Part shown: one piece after another, positions 11,863 through 56,017 of the stretch
Position numbering within the stretch: the first letter of the stretch is position 1
How the letters are laid out: the number at the start of each line of letters is the position of its first letter
Notes under the pieces: generated by a model
Told to the model about the DNA's origin: nothing
Seen by the model: only the letters and a program-made list of their open reading frames with translations
The model's database searches: none
NCBI GenBank assembly: GCA_031378375.1
Contig: JANNEF010000105.1
Location: 693 to 64,692 of the forward strand
DNA from: Verrucomicrobiota bacterium
Lineage (GTDB): Bacteria > Verrucomicrobiota > Verrucomicrobiia > Limisphaerales > JANNEF01
DNA length: 64,000 nucleotides
Direction: 5' to 3'
Made by a program: the position numbers and the translations under genes

Positions 11863-11966
11863 GATTAATCAGTGAGTCAGTAATCAGTAAACCAGTGGTG
11901 TGGCAGCCCGGGGCAGTTACTCCGTCCGCCGGATACTGACTCACCGATTACTGGATACTGGTTCAC
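11863..11966. repeat. CAGT-word palindromic element (copy in the opp operon)
   Basis: The left arm is GATTAATCAGTGAGTCAGTAATCAGTAAACCAGTGGTG. The right arm is GGATACTGACTCACCGATTACTGGATACTGGTTCAC, built of reverse-complement words. A ~30-nt spacer separates them. Confidence 0.8.
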
Positions 11967-26660: not shown

Positions 26661-26786
26661 AATAGTAATCAGTGGGTCAATAATCAGTGAATCAGTCACT
26701 GAGAAGCGAGGTTCACCGTCCCGCATAGCTGCGATCGCCATTGATCACTGGTTCACTGATTACTGACCTACTGACCCACTGACAAC
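26661..26786. repeat. CAGT-word palindromic element (batA-batB intergenic copy)
   Basis: The left arm is AGTAATCAGTGGGTCAATAATCAGTGAATCAGTCACTGAG. The right arm is TTGATCACTGGTTCACTGATTACTGACCTACTGACCCACTGAC, e.g. TCAGTGGGTCA pairs with TGACCCACTGA. The spacer is ~37 nt. Confidence 0.85.
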
Positions 26787-46686: not shown

Positions 46687-46716
46687 AGTGGAGCTGGCGC
46701 CCACGCCAGCGCCACT
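46687..46716 (+). terminator. GC-rich hairpin downstream of the porin gene
   Basis: AGTGGAGCTGGCG / CCCA / CGCCAGCGCCACT: a 13-bp stem with one mismatch, 21 nt after the stop. There is no U-run, so it may be a repeat element rather than a terminator. Confidence 0.4.
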
Positions 46717-48247: not shown

Positions 48248-49960
48248 ATGCCCAGCCCGCCTTCAACCAGACAACCCTTGCGCGAATCCGACACGAACGA
48301 CGGGCGCACGCTGATTGACGACTTGCTCGCCGAGCAGCGTCAACTCACCGCCGTCGAACAATTCTCCCGCGCGCACGACGCCCACGAAGTCCACGGCCGC
48401 CGCTACCGCGATCTGCTTCCCGCCAATGCGCCCGCGCCCGGACAGCAATACGCCTTCGAGGTGGACCTCGACCAGTGCAGCGGCTGCAAGGCGTGCGTGA
48501 CCGCGTGCCATTCGCTCAACGGCCTCGACGACGACGAGACCTGGCGCAGCGTCGGCGCGTTGCACTCCGCCAATGTGCGCCAGCCGCTCAAACAGATCGT
48601 CACCACGGCCTGTCATCATTGCGTGGATCCCGGTTGCCTCACCGGCTGTCCCGTGCTCGCCTACGACAAAGACCCCGTCACGGGCATCGTTCGCCACCTG
48701 GATGACCAGTGCATCGGCTGCCAGTATTGCGTGATGAAATGTCCCTACGAGGTGCCGCAGTACTCGAAGACTCGCGGCATCGTGCGCAAGTGCGACATGT
48801 GCAGCTCGCGCCTCGCCGTCGGTGAAGCCCCCGCGTGCGTGCAAGCCTGCCCGAACGAGGCGATCCGCATCACGGTGGTGGATCAGGCGAAGGTGCGCGG
48901 GAAGTATCGCAGGCTAAAATCCGAAGGCCGAAATCCGAAATCCGAATCAAATCCGAAGGCCGATAACCAAAACTCGCCATTCGGATTTCGGAATTCTTTC
49001 GGGCTTCGGGCTTCAGATTTCGGATTTCACAACTCCTTCCTCCCCGACTCGCCGAATCCCGCCATCACGCTTCCGACGACCCGTTACGTTTCCAAGCGCG
49101 CCCTGCCCGGCGACCTCGAAGCCGCTGACGCCCATGAACTCCGCCGCGCGAAGCCGCATCCGCCGCTCACCCTCATGCTGGTGCTCACCCAACTCGGCGC
49201 GGGGCTGGCGCTGATGGACGCGCTCACGGGCGGCGCGGCGCGGATGCTGGCAGCCGTCGCCCTCGCGGCCAGCGCCCTCGGCGTCGTCGCGGGCACGCTG
49301 CACCTGGGCCAGCCGCTCAAGGCGTGGCGCAGTTTTCTCGGCTGGCGCAAATCATGGCTGAGTCGCGAGTTGATTGCCTTCGGCGCTTTCGTCGGCGTGC
49401 TCGGCTCGCATCTGGCCATTGGCCGTCCGCTCTCCGCCGGTCTCGCCGCGCTCACCGGACTCCTCGCGGTCGCGTGCTCGGCGATGGTTTACGCGGACAC
49501 GCGCCGGCCGTTCTGGAACGCGCCGATGACATTTGGAAAATTCCTCGGCACCACGCTGTTGCTCGGCGGGGCGGGGTCCCTGTTGCTGTCGGCGCTTGCC
49601 ACGAATCCACTCCTGCCGCGCCCTCTGGTGGTCGCCGTGATCGTGCTCGGCACCATCTTCAAGCTGGCCGTGGAGAATCGCATCTTCCGCTTTCTCGTGG
49701 ACGAACAAGACCCGCACCTCACCGCTCTCAACAAGACCGCCCTGCTGCTCAACGGCCTGTTCGGCCGGCTCTCGCGCGGTCGCGTGGCTTGCGCCCTCGC
49801 GGGTGGAGTGGTGCTTCCGGCGTTGATGCTTGTCACCGGCGCGGGCGTCGCCTTGCCCGCGTTGGCGCTGACGTTGTGCGTCGCGGGTGAACTCATCGAG
49901 CGCCATCTCTTTTTCGTCGCCGAGGTCGCGCCCAAAATGCCGGGAGGCCGGGGAGTATGA
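48248..49960 (+). CDS. Fusion of a 4x[4Fe-4S] ferredoxin (DmsB/NrfC-like) and a DmsC-like polytopic membrane anchor
   Basis: Track ORF trimmed to the ATG at 48248. It has four Cys clusters ([41 protein letters not shown]...CVQACP). About 8 hydrophobic helices follow, from residue ~300. The stop overlaps the nasA start (ATGA). Confidence 0.8.
48915..49030. repeat. AATCCGA-word palindromic element (in-frame copy inside the FeS/DmsC gene)
   Basis: The left arm is TAAAATCCGAAGGCCGAAATCCGAAATCCGAATCAAATCCGAAGGCCGA, followed by a 15-nt spacer. The right arm is ATTCGGATTTCGGAATTCTTTCGGGCTTCGGGCTTCAGATTTCGGATTTCAC. It is translated as [39 protein letters not shown]. Confidence 0.85.
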
Positions 49961-52362
49961 AGACCACGGGAGCCACAACCAGGCGCGCGGCTGTGGTCGC
50001 AGACCCAGCCGCAGCGCCCACGCAACGACAACGAGCTGCGGCTGATCCTACGGACCCAGCCGCGCTCCAATCGAACTCCCTTCTCCGTCAATGGAGCGGC
50101 CCGCTGTCCTCCGACCTCACGTTGCATCCCGGCGACTTTGGTCTCGGCAGAATCCCCGCCCGCCTTCGCCCCGACGCCACCACACGCTCCATCTGCGGCT
50201 TCTGCTCCACGGGCTGTTCGCTTGACGTTCACCTGCAATCCGGCGTGGCCGTGAACCTCACGCCCACGGTGGACTATCCGGTGAATCTGGGCATGGCGTG
50301 CCCGAAAGGCTGGGAGGCGCTCACCTGTCTGGCCGCGCCGGATCGCGCCACACAACCGCTTTTGCGCAATCCCGACACCGGCAAACTCGAACCCACCGAC
50401 TGGGACGAAGCGATGCAGGTCTTCACGCTGAAGTTCAAGGCGCTGATGGATCAGCACGGGCCGGAGAGTGTGGCGTTTCTCAGCACCGGCCAGATTTGCA
50501 CGGAGGAGATGGCGCTCCTCGGCGCGCTTTGGAAGTTCGGCATGGGCGCGTTGCACGGCGACTCGAACACGCGCCAGTGCATGGCCACCAGCCACGTTGC
50601 CTACAAGCAGAGCTTCGGCTTCGACGCGCCGCCCTACACCTACGCGGACTTCGAGGAGTCGGACACGCTCGTCTTCATCGGCTCGAATCTCTGCATCGCG
50701 CACCCGATTCTCTGGCAGCGCGTCCTGCGGAACAAAAAAAATCCCGCCCTCATCGTCATTGACCCGCGCAAGACGGAGACGGCGATGAACGCGACCCAGC
50801 ACGTCGCGCTGCGGCCCAAGTCCGACCTCACGCTGCTCTACGGCCTGGCGAACCTGCTGGTGCAGGGCGGCTGGATTGACCGCGCGTTCATCGAGCGCAG
50901 CACGACGGGATTCGCGGAGTTCGCGGAGTTCGTGCGGCAGTTCACACCCGACAAAGTTGCGGCGGAGACCGGCTTGACCGTGGGCGAATTGTCCCGCGTC
51001 GCCGAGACCATCGCGAAGGGCAAGGCCGTGAGTTTCTGGTGGACGATGGGCGTGAACCAGAGCCACGAGAGCACGCGCACCGCGCAGGCCGTCATCAATC
51101 TCGCGCTGATGACCGGCAACATCGGCCGTCCCGGCACCGGCGCGAACAGCATCACCGGCCAGTGCAACGCGATGGGCTCGCGCCTGTTCGCCAACGCCTC
51201 GGGACTGCTTGGCGGGCGCGACTTCCTCAACGCTGAACATCGCGCCGAGGTATCGCGCGCGTTGCACATCGCGCCGGAAAGCATTCCCGCGAAGAACTCG
51301 CTCGCCTACGACCAAATCATGCAGGGCATCGCCGAGGGCCGGATCAAGGGCCTATGGGTCATCGCCACGAACACGGCGCACTCGTGGATTGATTCCGCCC
51401 GCGCCTGTGGCGCACTCGACAAGCTGGAATTTCTCGTCGTGCAGGACATGTTCACGACCACCGACACGGCGAAACGCGCGCATCTGATTTTGCCCGCCGC
51501 CGGCTGGGGCGAGAAGGAGGGCACGTTCATAAACAGCGAGCGGCGCTTCGGTCACATCAAGAAAGTGTCACGCGCGCCCGGCCAGGCGTTGAGCGATTTT
51601 AACATCTTCCGCCTGGTAGCCGAATACTGGGGCTGCGCCGGGATGTTCAGCCAGTGGACTTCGCCGCAGGCCGTTTTCCAAATCCTGAAAAGACTTTCCG
51701 CCGGTCGCCCGTGCGACATCACGGGCATCGAAGACTACCGGCATCTGGATGCGAGCGGCGGGATTCAGTGGCCGCTGGCAAAAGAACGTGAGTCAGTAAT
51801 CAGTGAGCCAGTGACCAGTGAACGCGAGATGGCGACGGGTTCCGCTACTGATTCACTGAATACTGGCGCACTGATTACTGATCACTCTCCCCGCGAACGC
51901 CGCCTCTTCGCCGACGGCAAGTTCTTCACTCCCGATGGCCGCGCAAAATTCCTCTTTGACCCGCCACGTCCCGTCGCCGAGCCGGTGGACAGCGAGTATC
52001 CGTTCGTGCTGTTGACCGGACGCGGCACGAGCGCGCAATGGCACACAAACACGCGCACCGGCAAGTCCGCCGTCTTGCGCACGCTGTATCCGGCCAACCC
52101 CTACGTGGAGATCCATCCGAAAGACGCCGCGCGATTGCGAATCGAACCAAACACGACCGTCGCCGTCATCTCACGACGCGGGCGCGTTGAGTGCGCCGCG
52201 GTGGTCACACCCATCGTGCAGCCCGGACAGGTCTTCATCCCGATGCATTACGACCTGACGAACCAATTGACCCGCGCCGAGTTCGATCCGCACTCGCGCC
52301 AGCCCAGCTACAAACATTGCGCAGTGCGAATTGAACCGACGCGCAACGGTTCCAACAAATGA
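49957..52362 (+). CDS. nasA: Molybdopterin (bis-MGD) oxidoreductase, assimilatory nitrate reductase type (NasA/NarB-like)
   Basis: 801 aa with an N-terminal FeS motif ([10 protein letters not shown]...CPKG) and MGD-binding segments ([14 protein letters not shown]). The C-terminal barrel has [20 protein letters not shown] and the tail [10 protein letters not shown]. Confidence 0.85.
51788..51887. repeat. CAGT-word palindromic element (in-frame copy inside nasA)
   Basis: The left arm is GTGAGTCAGTAATCAGTGAGCCAGTGACCAGTGAAC, followed by a 23-nt spacer. The right arm is TACTGATTCACTGAATACTGGCGCACTGATTACTGATCACTC. It is translated as [33 protein letters not shown]. Confidence 0.85.
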
Positions 52363-54233
52363 GCGCCACGGAGTCCAACATCGTTGAGTTGCCCAAGTCG
52401 CCCGGACGCGAATTCACGCCCGAGCAAAAGGAATATCTCGCCGGCTTCATGGCAGGCATCGCGCAGCGCGGAATGATCCCCTTCGTCGGCGCGATGCCGG
52501 ATGGCCGCCTCACCGCTGACCCGGCGCACGGCGGCGACAATCTCGCCGCGCCGCGCGAGGAGACGGTGTTCGGCACGCCGCTCTCGGAGTTATGCAAACA
52601 GGAGCGATGGAAGTACGAGGAAAACCCGCTGGACGTTTGGGACAAGCTGCTCGCCTGCGCCGAGCAGGACAAACTACCCGACGAGGCGGACACTTTTCGC
52701 TTTCGGGCGCACGGCCTGTTCAACGTCGCCCCGGCGCAGAACGCCTTCATGCTGCGCTGCCGCATCCCCGCCGGCGAGTTGACGGCGGCGCAACTCAAGG
52801 GCCTCGCCGACATCGCGGAGGAATGGGGCGGCGGCTGGGCGGACATCACCACGCGGTCGAATATCCAGATTCGACAAATTGCGCCGCGCCACATCATCAA
52901 GGTGCTGACGCGGCTGCAGGAACTCGGACTCACCGCGCGCGGTTCCGGCGTGGACAACATTCGAAATGTCACCGCGTCGCCCACGGCGGGCTTCGACGCG
53001 GCGGAGTTGATTGACACGCGCCCGCTGGCGCACGCGCTGCACCACTACATCCTCAATCACCGCGACCTCTACGGGCTGCCGCGCAAGTTCAACGTCGCCT
53101 TCGACGGCGGCGGCGCGGTGAGCGCGGTGGCGGACACGAATGACATCGGGTTCGTGGCGGTACGAGTGGCGCAGGCTTCCAGCCTGAGTCCGGCGGGCTT
53201 GCCGCCCGCGAATCTGGGGCAGGGTGCCCCAAGCGGCAGGCTGGAAGCCTGCCCCACTATCGAGCCCGGCACCTACTTCCGCGTCGAACTCGCCGGCATC
53301 ACCGGGCACCGGCAGTTCGCGAAGGACGCGGGCATTCTCGTGAAGCCGGGCGAATGCCTGGCCGTCGCCGCCGCGATGATTCGCGTGTTCTGTGAGCACG
53401 GCGACCGTACCGACCGCAAGAAGGCGCGGCTGAAATACCTGATTGATAAGTGGGGCATCCCGAAGTTCCTCGAAGCGACGCAAGCGAAACTCGCCTTTGC
53501 GCTCCGTCATTTTCCGTTGGAGCAGTGCGAGCCGCGCCATCCGGCGGTGAAGCACGGGCACATCGGCGTGTTCAAGCAGGCGCAGCGCAACTTGAACTAC
53601 GTCGGCGTCGTCATCCCCGTGGGCCGGATGCAGGCGCGGCAAATGCGCCGGCTCGCCGACCTCGCGGCAAATTACGGCTCTGGCCACCTGCGCCTGACGC
53701 CGTGGCAGAATCTGCTATTGCCGAACATCCCCGACGGTTTCGTCGAGACGGTGAAGCGCAATCTCCTCCGCATCGGTTTCCACTATGAAGCCAGCACCAT
53801 CGCCGGCGGCCTCGTCGCCTGCACCGGCAACACCGGTTGTAAGTGGGCCGCGACGAACACCAAGGGCCAGGCGGTGGAGCTGGCGCGCTATCTGGAAAAG
53901 CGCGTGCAACTCGACCAGCCGATCAACATCCATCTCACCGGCTGCCCGAACTCCTGCGCGCAGCACTACATGGGCGACATCGGCCTGCAAGGGGCGCGCG
54001 TCACGTTGAGCGGCGAGTCGGTGGAGGCGTATCACGTCGTGCTTGGTGGCGGTTACGGCGCGGAGCAGGCGGTAGCAAAGGAAGTGTTCAAAGGCATCCC
54101 GTTCTCCGCGCTGCCGGAGCTGCTGGAGCGGGTGCTCATTGTTTACCAGGAGAAGCGGGCGGCGGGCGAGAGCTTCGCCGCGTTCACGCGCCGGCATGAA
54201 GTGAAACAACTGCAAGAGATGTTTTCTGAGTGA
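52359..54233 (+). CDS. nirA: Sirohaem/[4Fe-4S] nitrite (or sulfite) reductase hemoprotein, NirA-type
   Basis: 624 aa. It has duplicated NIR_SIR halves and the cluster/sirohaem Cys motif ([11 protein letters not shown]...[17 protein letters not shown]). The start overlaps the nasA stop (ATGA). Confidence 0.85.
53171..53252. repeat. Inverted-repeat element inside nirA (in frame)
   Basis: Perfect 16-bp inverted repeat GCAGGCTTCCAGCCTG (53171-86) / CAGGCTGGAAGCCTGC (53237-52). It encloses two small hairpins (GCGGG-CTTGCCG-CCCGC and GGGGCA-GGG-TGCCCC). It is translated as [28 protein letters not shown]. Confidence 0.8.
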
Positions 54234-56017
54234 TGGAAACCAACTTGATTCCCTACCTGCCCGACACGGCGCCGTTCACGCCGGAGCAACGAGCCTATTT
54301 GAACGGGCTGTTCGCCGGCCTGTTCGCCCACGCGCCGCGCGCCACCAACCCGGCGCCTGCCGCCAAGCCACTGCTACCGCTGACCATTCTGTTTGGCTCG
54401 CAGACCGGCAATGCGGAGGCGCTCGCCAAGCGCGTCGCCAAGGAAGCCGGCAAGCAGGGCTTCGCGCCGACGATCTTTGACGCGGCGCAATATCCGCGCG
54501 AGCAACTCAAGACCGAGAAGCATCTGCTGCTCATCACCAGCACCTACGGTGACGGCGAACCGCCGGACAACGCAAAGGACCTGTGGGAATTTCTCACCGC
54601 CACCACCGCACCCGCGCTGCCGGAGTTGAAGTTCTCCGTGCTGGCCCTGGGCGACACGAACTACGAAAAGTTCTGCGAGTGCGGGAAAAACTTCGACCGC
54701 CGCTTCCATGAGCTGGGCGCACACCGGGCGCATCCGCGCGTGGATTGCGACGTGGACTTTGAGGAGCCATTCGGGAACTGGCTGGCCGGCGCGTTGGGCG
54801 CGCTGGCAGGCGGTGGGGGAGTAATCAGTGAATCAGTAATCAGTAGGTCAGTGACCAGTGCGCCCGTCTCTGCCACTGATTCACTGGTTACTGGTTACTC
54901 GCGCGCCCACCCGTTCCCCGCCCCGCTCGTCGCCAACCGCCGGCTCAACGCTCCCGGCTCGGGCAAGGACACGCGGCATTTTGAAATCGCACTCGACGGC
55001 AGCGGCTTGACCTATGAAGTCGGCGACGCGCTGGGGGTGGTGCCGGCGAATTGCCCGGAACTCGCGGACGAGATGCTTCGCACGCTCGGCTGCACCGGCG
55101 GGGAAGCGGTGCCCGGCGCGAAGGGTGGCGAAGTCCCGCTGCGCGAGGCGCTGTTGCGGCATTACGACATCACGAAGATTGCCCAGCCGCTCTTGCAGGC
55201 AATGGCAGAGCGGAGCGGGGACGAGTTGCTCAAGCAACTCACCGCGCCCGGTGTGAACGGCGAGTTGACGAAATTTCTCTGGGGCCGCGAGATTGTTGAC
55301 CTGTTGCTGGCGCACCCGCGCGCGAAGTTCGCACCGATGGAATTTGTCGGCCTGCTCAAGAAACTTCAGCCGCGGCTCTACTCCATTTCCTCCAGCCCCA
55401 AGGCACATCCCGGCCAGGTGCATCTCACTGTCGGGGTCGTGCGCTACGAATCGCTGGGCCGGGCGCGCAAAGGCGTGTGCTCCACGTTCCTGGCGGAGCG
55501 CGCGGGCGGCGGCGCGGCGGCGCCGGTCTTCGTCCACACGAACAAAGGCTTTCGCCCGCCCGCCGATGGCAGCCGTCCGATGATCATGGTCGGGCCGGGC
55601 ACGGGCATCGCGCCGTTCCGCGCTTTTCTGGAAGAGCGTCGCGCCGTCGGCGCGACGGGAAAGAACTGGCTGTTCTTCGGCGACCAACGGTCGGAGATGG
55701 ATTTCCTCTACCGCGAAGAGCTGGAGGCGATGCATCGCGACGGCACGCTGGCGCGGCTGGACACGGCTTTCTCCCGCGATCAGGAAGAAAAGATTTACGT
55801 GCAACAGCGAATGCTCGAACACGCCACCGAACTGTTCACCTGGCTGGAGGCCGGCGCGCATTTCTACGTCTGCGGCGACGCCAACCGCATGGCGAAGGAC
55901 GTGGACCGGGCGCTGCACCAGATCATCGAGCAAGCCGGCGGACGCACGGCAGAGCCGGCGGCGGAGTACGTGAAGAAGATGCAGGCGGAGAAGCGGTATC
56001 AGCGGGATGTGTATTGA
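54230..56017 (+). CDS. Diflavin reductase, sulfite reductase flavoprotein CysJ-like (flavodoxin + FAD/NADPH domains)
   Basis: 595 aa with an FMN domain ([32 protein letters not shown]) and an FAD/NADPH domain ([42 protein letters not shown]). Start is GTG 54230 or ATG 54233; both overlap the nirA stop. Confidence 0.88.
54821..54900. repeat. CAGT-word palindromic element (in-frame copy inside the cysJ-like gene)
   Basis: The left arm is GTAATCAGTGAATCAGTAATCAGTAGGTCAGTGACCAGTG, followed by a 13-nt spacer. The right arm is CACTGATTCACTGGTTACTGGTTACTC. It is translated as [27 protein letters not shown]. Confidence 0.85.

Follow-up and report, generated by a model that had tools for sequence, protein, structure and literature searches.

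Within a stretch of 64,000 nucleotides from a Verrucomicrobiota bacterium (contig JANNEF010000105.1; this 64-kb stretch as a whole is called the window below), the gene for a NirA-family ferredoxin-nitrite/sulfite reductase, nirA, carries a palindrome in its reading frame at positions 53165-53258. What is this palindrome, and how did it come to lie in the gene for an otherwise intact enzyme? The evidence presented here makes it very probable that it is a doublet of repetitive extragenic palindromic (REP) units of the REPIN type, a non-autonomous member of the GT[AG]G-tagged superfamily that landed in a tolerant loop of NirA and is translated there as a passenger.

The palindrome and its place in NirA

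The initial annotation had reported a perfect 16-bp inverted repeat at 53171-86 and 53237-52, enclosing 50 nt with two small hairpins. Indeed, GCAGGCTTCCAGCCTG (53171-53186) is the exact reverse complement of CAGGCTGGAAGCCTGC (53237-53252), and the arms are longer than first noted: they comprise 22 nt each, 53165-53186 (AGTGGCGCAGGCTTCCAGCCTG) and 53237-53258 (CAGGCTGGAAGCCTGCCCCACT), are complementary at 21/22 positions (95%; one mismatch), with 16 perfect, and flank a spacer of 50 nt. In total, the element spans 94 nt as an imperfect palindrome and comprises four hairpins. The two small hairpins of the spacer are found in the fold at 53193-53209 and 53215-53231, and both are closed by a 3-bp junction helix in which 53190-92 are paired to 53234-36. 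The features of the locus are:

52359..54233, + strand: host gene, NirA-family ferredoxin-nitrite/sulfite reductase of 624 aa, otherwise intact (Pfam NIR_SIR 1.9e-45, NIR_SIR_ferr 6.5e-39)
53165..53258, no strand: whole element, probable tail-to-tail REP doublet (REPIN type), four hairpins, 94 nt (inverted repeat, fold z, nhmmer profile match)
53166..53258, + strand: codons for NirA residues 270-300 (31 residues), in frame, no stop (frame of the open reading frame, ORF; AlphaFold2)
53166..53186, + strand: left REP unit, GTGG (53166-69), CG, hairpin CAGGCT-TCC-AGCCTG (53172-86); identical to the 21-mer GTGGCGCAGGCTTCCAGCCTG that flanks transposase genes at loci L174 and L244
53193..53209, no strand: inner hairpin 1, GCGGGC TTGCC GCCCGC, diverged from the family form GCGGGC-ATCTT-GCCCGC (fold; alignment A2 with L009, L113, L152, L229, L148, L239)
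53215..53231, no strand: inner hairpin 2, TGGGGCA GGG TGCCCCA, diverged from the family form GGGGC-TGGAA-GCCCC (fold; alignment A2)
53235..53257, - strand: right REP unit, GTGG (= CCAC 53254-57), then 8-bp stem GGCAGGCT, loop TCC, AGCCTGCC (stem 8, gap 0, loop 3)

The free-energy estimate that the initial annotation had called for gave a minimum free energy (MFE) of -70.4 kcal/mol for the RNA, compared with -47.9 +/- 4.2 kcal/mol for 200 dinucleotide shuffles (z -5.3), and none of the 200 shuffles was as good. The DNA fold had -42.6 kcal/mol with z -6.6, and again 0/200 shuffles were as good. The outer helix formed by the arms was present in both the MFE and the centroid structures. When positions 52000-54500 were scanned against Rfam (E up to 10), the best matches, mir-734 and Pseudomon-groES, had E values of 8-9 and lay far under the gathering scores; as these are chance-level matches only, the element belongs to no known RNA family. 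Two other candidates were discarded. A likeness to the anticodon arm of tRNA-Gly(UCC) was dropped because the loops have 3-5 nt and not 7, and CsrA-type binding sites, which the GGA-containing loops had brought to mind, were dropped because many loops read AAGAT and the elements occur in both orientations.

As had been proposed, the palindrome is in frame in ORF 52359..54233, where it would encode residues 270-300 of NirA. The closest relatives of this protein are from Verrucomicrobia and Pedosphaera-like metagenome-assembled genomes (MAGs), at an identity of 79% or less. Among 41 orthologues, the part of NirA that varies most in length is the stretch between DIGF.AVRV(A/G) and IEPG, a hypervariable loop. 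Between AVRVA and IEPG, the window protein has 29 residues and minimal-loop orthologues have 4, the minimal turns reading AEGSG (P0011) or EGK. (P0057, P0101 and P0113). The excess of roughly 30 residues that had been suspected from other nitrite/sulfite reductases was therefore confirmed, and it was seen also against tobacco nitrite reductase, where the alignment breaks (query 266->331, chain 276->312) and leaves ~29 extra residues. The alignment to the solved plant nitrite reductases is interrupted exactly at the inserted loop.

At the DNA level, the segment that encodes TNDIGF..GITGH is 174 nt long in the window and 99 nt in the orthologue of locus L123, a net gain of 75 nt. At the insertion site, L123 reads GTG GCC GAG GGT TCG GGC ATT GAG. 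The close orthologues L121 and L122, whose DNA was compared, have other, unrelated G+C-rich sequence in the same loop, and a profile of the element family found no match in nirA of L121, L122 or L123. As evidence to the contrary, the initial annotation had named a lack of other genomic copies together with the presence of the same loop in NirA orthologues of unrelated taxa. Neither was observed: the element has many relatives in other genomes, as described below, and the loop is absent from the minimal orthologues and different in the closest ones. Judging from these alignments, the palindrome is an insertion in a NirA loop.

In an AlphaFold2 model, which was built on an alignment, residues 277-297 have a predicted local distance difference test (pLDDT) score below 50 and are without secondary structure, between strands at 263-270 and 304-311. 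The window protein has every residue that does not vary among the 41 aligned NirA sequences (necessarily so). The NirA gene therefore looks functional, with an extra, presumably translated, disordered loop.

The same loop holds other inserts in other NirA proteins. In P0030, P0072, P0043, P0037, P0048 and P0019 (alignment A1, columns 335-450) we observed other, mutually different repeat-like inserts, for example 'LTPALSPSEGERENRRQ...PLPLGGGEGQGEG' and 'PAVSPISKSAGLGNDGRVAGFETRDTADLEVCATP'. In L121 the loop has, at this place, hairpins that end in GCCAC; in L122 it starts with GTAGGGGGC. As far as such comparisons can tell, the NirA loop is a recurrent landing or tolerance site.

REP units and four-hairpin composites in other genomes

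In the operational definition of REPs (PMC6006769, after Nunvar 2010), the tetranucleotide GTAG or GTGG lies 0-2 nt 5' of a hairpin, and the basal stem of this hairpin is fully paired over 7-20 nt, with a loop of 2-5 nt and at least three G/C in the first four stem bases (PMC6006769). The arms of the palindrome are built on the plan GTGG, 0-2 nt, then the G+C-rich hairpin GCAGGCT-TCC-AGCCTGC. In the left arm GTGG is followed by 2 nt and the stem, and in the right arm, read on the minus strand, by the stem directly (0 nt). The right arm has an 8-bp stem and the loop TCC. The left arm has 6 perfect pairs only, because of one substitution (CCTGAG instead of CCTGCG), and is a slightly decayed unit. 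The two units are inverted, separated by the 50-nt spacer, and fold as one long hairpin, which is the arrangement of a REPIN.

The initial annotation had suggested that the palindrome belongs to a family of dispersed repeats. Both the arm and the four-hairpin element as a whole have many relatives, all of them in other genomes; in the window, the nirA element is the only copy. In a scan of 185,579 species genomes, GTGGNGCAGGCTTCCAGCCTG was found in at least 120 stretches, with at least 157 matches; by our own calculation, ~1 match would be expected by chance at uniform composition and ~5 at 65% G+C. Copy numbers and taxonomic breadth taken from these genome and metagenome scans are lower bounds. 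Among the matches listed, the identical 21-mer was present in genomes labelled from more than 10 phyla: Planctomycetota, Verrucomicrobiota, Acidobacteriota, Chloroflexota, Nitrospirota, Nitrospinota, Methylomirabilota, Myxococcota, Desulfobacterota, Hydrogenedentota, Kiritimatiellota, Cyanobacteria, Bacteroidota-like and Actinomycetota. These labels are the depositors', and some of those given to MAGs are questionable (a 'Klebsiella' bin, 'Akkermansia muciniphila' bins), but the range of phyla stands without them. The carriers include the isolates Adhaeretor mobilis and Pontiella sulfatireligans, and megabase contigs. Within the window, no second copy of the 16-mer was found, and the other matches (up to 3 mismatches) look like chance.

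Among the 157 occurrences of the unit listed, the base that follows GTGG and the one that follows the stem covary (T..A, G..C, C..G), which lengthens the hairpin. Units occur as singlets, in same-strand arrays and, most often, as inverted doublets. They are multi-copy in several genomes, with at least 7 loci in Acidobacteriota MFD09222 (L015, L028, L057, L061, L088, L111 and L120), where the spacers are conserved, and more than 10 loci in Planctomycetota CA_2019_TPBF_19. Sample Ga0209628 has ~50 near-identical copies of a larger element built round the same core. At locus L089 (Caldora sp., a cyanobacterium), around position 2847, an A+T-richer unit, CTGTAGAACAAG[CA]TTCCAACCTGT, is repeated in tandem beside one exact match, which hints that the family may extend into cyanobacteria in diverged form.

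Inverted doublets with spacers of 35-65 nt are abundant in metagenomes (the number listed is again a minimum), and 152 doublets of the same arm were present among the loci compared, in distinct sub-families with conserved spacers. The sub-family to which the window copy corresponds has the order TAGTGGGG-CAGGCTTCCAGCCTG, GCGGGC-ATCTT-GCCCGC, GGGGC-TGGAA-GCCCC, CAGGCTGGAAGCCTG-CCCCACTA, and its members include L009, L113, L152, L221, L229, L148, L133 and L239. These four-hairpin composites, ending in TAGTGGGG...CCCCACTA, share the architecture of the window element. An nhmmer profile made from 11 four-hairpin composites of other genomes, with the row of the window left out, recovered window positions 53165-53259 over profile positions 3-102 with an E value of 1.1e-16; it gave no further match anywhere in the 64-kb window. 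The window copy shows slight decay, in that its two inner loops and two left-arm positions depart from the consensus. Across the sub-families the foot positions covary between the two ends (GTGG..CCAC, GTAG..CTAC, GCAG..CTGC).

The elements avoid genes only in part. An ORF of at least 250 codons spans 31% of the elements and 64% of random positions in the same loci. The family as a whole is thus predominantly extragenic, as REPs are, and the window copy belongs to the intragenic minority. With an in-ORF rate about half that of random positions, the elements are selected against in genes, yet they are not excluded from them. In-frame units lie between or next to Pfam domains in FadB-like (L148), FAD-oxidase/Fe-S (L152), RecG (L105), Dus (L077) and flavoprotein (L190) ORFs, and the peptides GFQPA, GWKPAP, RLEACPT and QAGSLPH, which the elements encode, recur in host proteins from several genomes. 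The GTGG-footed unit is free of stop codons in all six frames and the GTAG-footed unit loses two frames; the open GTGG foot would help to explain the frequent intragenic location. Whole doublets are weakly enriched in open frames, with a mean of 3.5 compared with 3.3 in random pieces, and 12% versus 3% are fully open, in a set of copies that are not independent. In the window copy, the +2 frame is interrupted by one stop. One might entertain the idea that openness in every frame is a built-in property of the element.

RAYT genes and the origin of the insertion

When all ORFs of the first 120 loci were clustered, there was no recurrent neighbour gene: the biggest cluster, of SDR-type dehydrogenases, was present at 6 loci, and the clusters were common families only (SDR dehydrogenases, Ser/Thr kinases, ECF sigma factors), each at no more than 6 loci. 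This is as expected of non-autonomous repeats. In a tblastn search with published sequences of REP-associated tyrosine transposases (RAYTs) and TIRYTs, five RAYT-like ORFs were found in 243 loci. Locus L174 encodes a 216-aa Y1_Tnp protein (PF01797, 28.2 bits, cut-off 23), and doublets lie both upstream and downstream of its gene; their arm, GTGGCGCAGGCTTCCAGCCTG, is exactly the left arm of the window element. At L244, protein P0124 is 86% identical to that of L174, and the same doublets with GTGGCGCAGGCTTCCAGCCTG flank its gene. A Y1 HUH gene flanked by the same REP units, the REPtron arrangement by which REP/RAYT systems are defined, is therefore present in other genomes (L174 and L244). Homologues at 64-66% identity (L245, L247) are flanked by the variant units GTAGCACAGACTT[TC]AGTCTGTG and GTAGCACAGGCTTCAGCCTGTG, and at L062 the RAYT gene has a REP at its 3' end. 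At E <= 1e-10 the protein family comprises 2,550 members, and those that carry a name in the source databases are called 'REP-associated tyrosine transposase' or 'RayT'; this RAYT clade reads FWQDESFDH, which is outside the WQxRF pattern.

Three further observations concern these RAYT genes. The flanking REP differs from one RAYT to another, being GTGG-C-GCAGGC-TTCC-AGCCTG for P0124 (L244), GTAG-CACAGAC-TT[TC]A-GTCTGTG for P0207 (L245) and GTAG-CACAGGC-TTCA-GCCTGTG for P0212 (L247). That REP units change with the RAYT sequence suggests that enzyme and hairpin co-diversify. Many RAYT homologues are on contigs of 1-2 kb, as expected if assemblies break at flanking repeats. At L154 (contig Ga0209628_10000097, 1760-5935, - strand), a complete REP-RAYT-REP is in frame inside a 1392-aa isoleucyl-tRNA-synthetase-like ORF: the Y1_Tnp domain occupies residues 792-867 and is flanked by the REP-encoded peptides SQASSLP...QAGSLRS and LRAGKMPAFPG, the host domains are tRNA-synt_1 (54-679) and Anticodon_1 (1021-1177), and the insert lies just ahead of the KMSK region. 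The organism concerned is the one with the ~50 near-identical copies of the larger element noted above.

The RAYT genes flanked by the exact arm, together with the family matches, identify the window element in all likelihood as a REP doublet of the REPIN type. Its history may then have been as follows. A Y1 HUH transposase (RAYT), working in trans, would copy members of the family in the form of single-stranded hairpin DNA, and one copy would have entered nirA where the DNA encodes a beta-hairpin turn, beside a GTGG that was already there (codons for Val-Ala/Gly). L123 already has GTGGCC at this site, which would fit an insertion next to a foot-like target. The insert length is a multiple of three (net +75 nt) and the insert has no stop in the frame of nirA; it would be translated as a surface loop of ~25-30 disordered residues, tolerated by NirA; the loop would be a passenger and not a working part of the enzyme.

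Several points weigh against this account. The boundaries of the insertion are blurred by the ~24% protein divergence from L123, the nearest orthologue with an empty site, and no target-site signature is readable; the translation of the insert is deduced from its open frame. The 64-kb window has a single copy of the element, and tblastn found no RAYT-like ORF in it. Larger elements whose outer inverted repeats are different also contain the 16-nt core, for example CTGGGAAC... within GGATTGCAAAGTC..., so the mobilising enzyme may differ between sub-families. Finally, we infer the action of a RAYT on this REP by analogy, from the REPtron arrangement and from published work in E. coli, where TnpA_REP is said to bind and cleave REPs as single-stranded DNA.

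The palindrome could instead have been kept for an RNA or DNA structure that serves the operon, as an mRNA stabiliser, an RNase III/E site, a translational pause between the NirA domains or a protein-binding site. In favour are the high stability of the fold (-70.4 kcal/mol, z -5.3) and the two 16-nt arms, which remain perfect although the inner hairpins have diverged from the consensus of the family; moreover, a palindromic insert is present in each of the operon's three consecutive genes, and REPs have been reported to affect mRNA stability and termination in other bacteria (PMC3733652). We nevertheless hold such a role to be improbable, since the unit occurs in many phyla and in either orientation, both intergenically and within unrelated genes, NirA orthologues lack the element or have unrelated inserts at the site, Rfam gave no family match (E 8-9 at best), and nothing links the structure to nitrate assimilation in particular. 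An ancestral or adaptive NirA loop with accidental palindromy, or an assembly artefact, is scarcely credible. Many orthologues do have a long loop at the same position, and the window comes from an uncultured-type assembly; however, the orthologue loops are mutually unrelated and are absent from the minimal orthologues, an accident would have to account for the 21/22 arm complementarity and for a full-length profile match (E 1e-16) to elements of unrelated genomes, and the intact frame and flanking conserved residues are not expected of an assembly chimera.

Another proposal is that the element is a miniature inverted-repeat transposable element (MITE) moved by a DDE transposase, for example an IS630/Tc1-like enzyme that duplicates TA, the GTGG feet being merely part of its terminal inverted repeats. 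The closest composites do end in TA-GTGGGG...CCCCAC-TA, the right side in the window being CCCCACTA, and the occurrence of the core within longer elements with other outer inverted repeats would suit a MITE. The TA, however, belongs to the palindrome and so is not readable as a duplication. To the left of the window element there is none (GA-GTGG), nor in sub-families with other flanks, such as AAAGTAGG...CCTACTTT and ATTGTGGT...ACCACAAT. No gene family recurs beside the elements in the first 120 loci, and it is Y1/RAYT genes that are directly flanked by the exact arm. We regard a DDE-driven MITE as quite improbable.

Neighbouring repeats and related systems

The window contains other repeats. 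A second, unrelated palindromic family, AGTAATCAGTGAGTCAGTAATCAGTGA ... TCACTGATTACTGA, is present at 51793-51881, 54820-54892, 26664-26774 and 11866-11950. Two of its copies are intergenic and two are in frame, in a molybdopterin nitrate-reductase-like ORF (49957..52362) and in a flavodoxin/FAD/NAD reductase ORF (54230..56017), and its peptides resemble VISE.VTS..SATDSL.TG..ITDH. Together with the nirA element, these two in-frame copies mean that all three consecutive nitrate-assimilation genes carry a presumably translated palindrome. Upstream of the nitrate-reductase-like ORF, at 48923-49028, inverted repeats that consist of GAAATCCGAAATCCGAAT / ATTCGGATTTCGGA units are clustered in non-coding DNA; the cluster could be a regulatory or a repeat element.

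Downstream of the gene first called a porin, the initial annotation had seen a hairpin that looked related to the nirA palindrome. The hairpin exists, at 46687-46716 (AGTGG A GCTGGCG CCCA CGCCAGC G CCACT), and the kinship does not extend beyond the GTGG/CCAC feet and a trailing TAT, the stem being unrelated. With a single stem and GTGG and CCAC on its two sides, it has the 'double-foot' REP form (described in PMC6006769). No copy of it was found in the 243 loci, and a simple terminator scan did not flag it.

Seen as a REP doublet, the nirA element has close counterparts among described systems. It shares with the REP, BIME (bacterial interspersed mosaic element) and REPIN sequences and their RAYT (TnpA_REP) in E. 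coli, Pseudomonas and Stenotrophomonas (PMC3733652, PMC6006769) the GT[AG]G foot 0-2 nt 5' of a hairpin. The inverted pairing into a long hairpin, the dispersed and mostly intergenic location and the Y1 gene flanked by the same units are shared as well; the spacer of the window type differs in its two extra hairpins, and the window copy is intragenic. Many REP/RAYT families are species- or genus-specific, whereas here the identical 21-mer was listed from more than 10 phyla. Such systems were reportedly also treated by Nunvar 2010 and by Bertels & Rainey 2011 (a REPIN being a REP doublet that forms a hairpin). The stem-loop GCAGGCT-TCC-AGCCTGC does not occur in the text or supplements of PMC3733652 and PMC6006769, and the core sequence had no match in a full-text search of a literature collection of 8 million papers.

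There is a precedent in the same phylum. Di Nocera et al. 2013 (PMC3733652) described REPs of the GTAG-tagged superfamily from eight phyla, among them Planctomycetes and, for the Verrucomicrobia, Opitutus terrae; the GTGG variant was found in O. terrae, and intragenic GT[AG]G REPs were most numerous there, mostly as dimers encoding 20-30 aa. The O. terrae families GTAG-17 to GTAG-20 (Di Nocera et al. 2013) resemble the present one in that one family has changed its foot from GTAG to GTGG, many copies are in frame in genes of known function, and dimers encode 20-30 residues. They have other stems and encode the peptides VGPALAAG, GTGVPPV and HGRHARAT, not GFQPA, RLEACPT or GWKPAP, and the hosts listed include no NirA with the present element.

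The classic palindromes translated inside genes are the Rickettsia palindromic elements (RPEs). RPE-1 and others are said to have been described by Ogata et al. in 2000. As in RPEs, the palindrome is in frame in a gene that apparently stays functional and at a tolerated surface position: the frame is kept, there is no stop, and the segment is modelled by AlphaFold2 as a disordered loop between two strands. This is a likeness of behaviour and not evidence of common descent. RPEs are A+T-rich, restricted to Rickettsia and probably unrelated in sequence; the window element has ~70% G+C, and with its host phylum this makes kinship unlikely. RPEs are not known to be linked to a RAYT. Bacterial MITEs (Correia/NEMIS, Nezha, RUP, ERIC) are likewise short, non-coding, multi-copy inverted repeats, some of them in or overlapping genes. 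They differ in deriving from DDE insertion sequences and in having target-site duplications; here no duplication is readable and the linked enzyme is a Y1 HUH transposase. Inverted ends are trivially present in the window element, and the TA that flanks the closest composites is palindromic.

The kind of element and its behaviour are thus already described, in O. terrae and in Rickettsia, and the present unit is a new REP/RAYT family, not a new kind of system. Only its wide, sequence-identical distribution and its frequent residence in coding DNA are mildly surprising. A broader proposal would be that the GCAGGCT-TCC-AGCCTGC unit and its RAYT form a single REPIN lineage that has spread horizontally over much of the bacterial tree with its 21-mer unchanged in more than ten phyla, systematically colonising coding DNA by way of the stop-free GTGG foot and acting as a general source of new disordered loops and linkers in enzymes, the in-frame REP-RAYT-REP of L154 being one case. 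We find this doubtful as it stands; if true, such a lineage would contribute significantly, and in a way not yet described, to protein length variation in soil and water bacteria with large genomes.

A REPIN insertion would explain why NirA has a loop of ~30 residues that is without counterpart in minimal-loop orthologues and unaligned in the solved nitrite reductases. It is also a warning that neither this loop nor the recurrent peptide strings should be taken as a functional motif. The family may be a good system in which to study the reach of horizontal REPIN transfer and the contribution of selfish palindromes to the evolution of loops and linkers in proteins.

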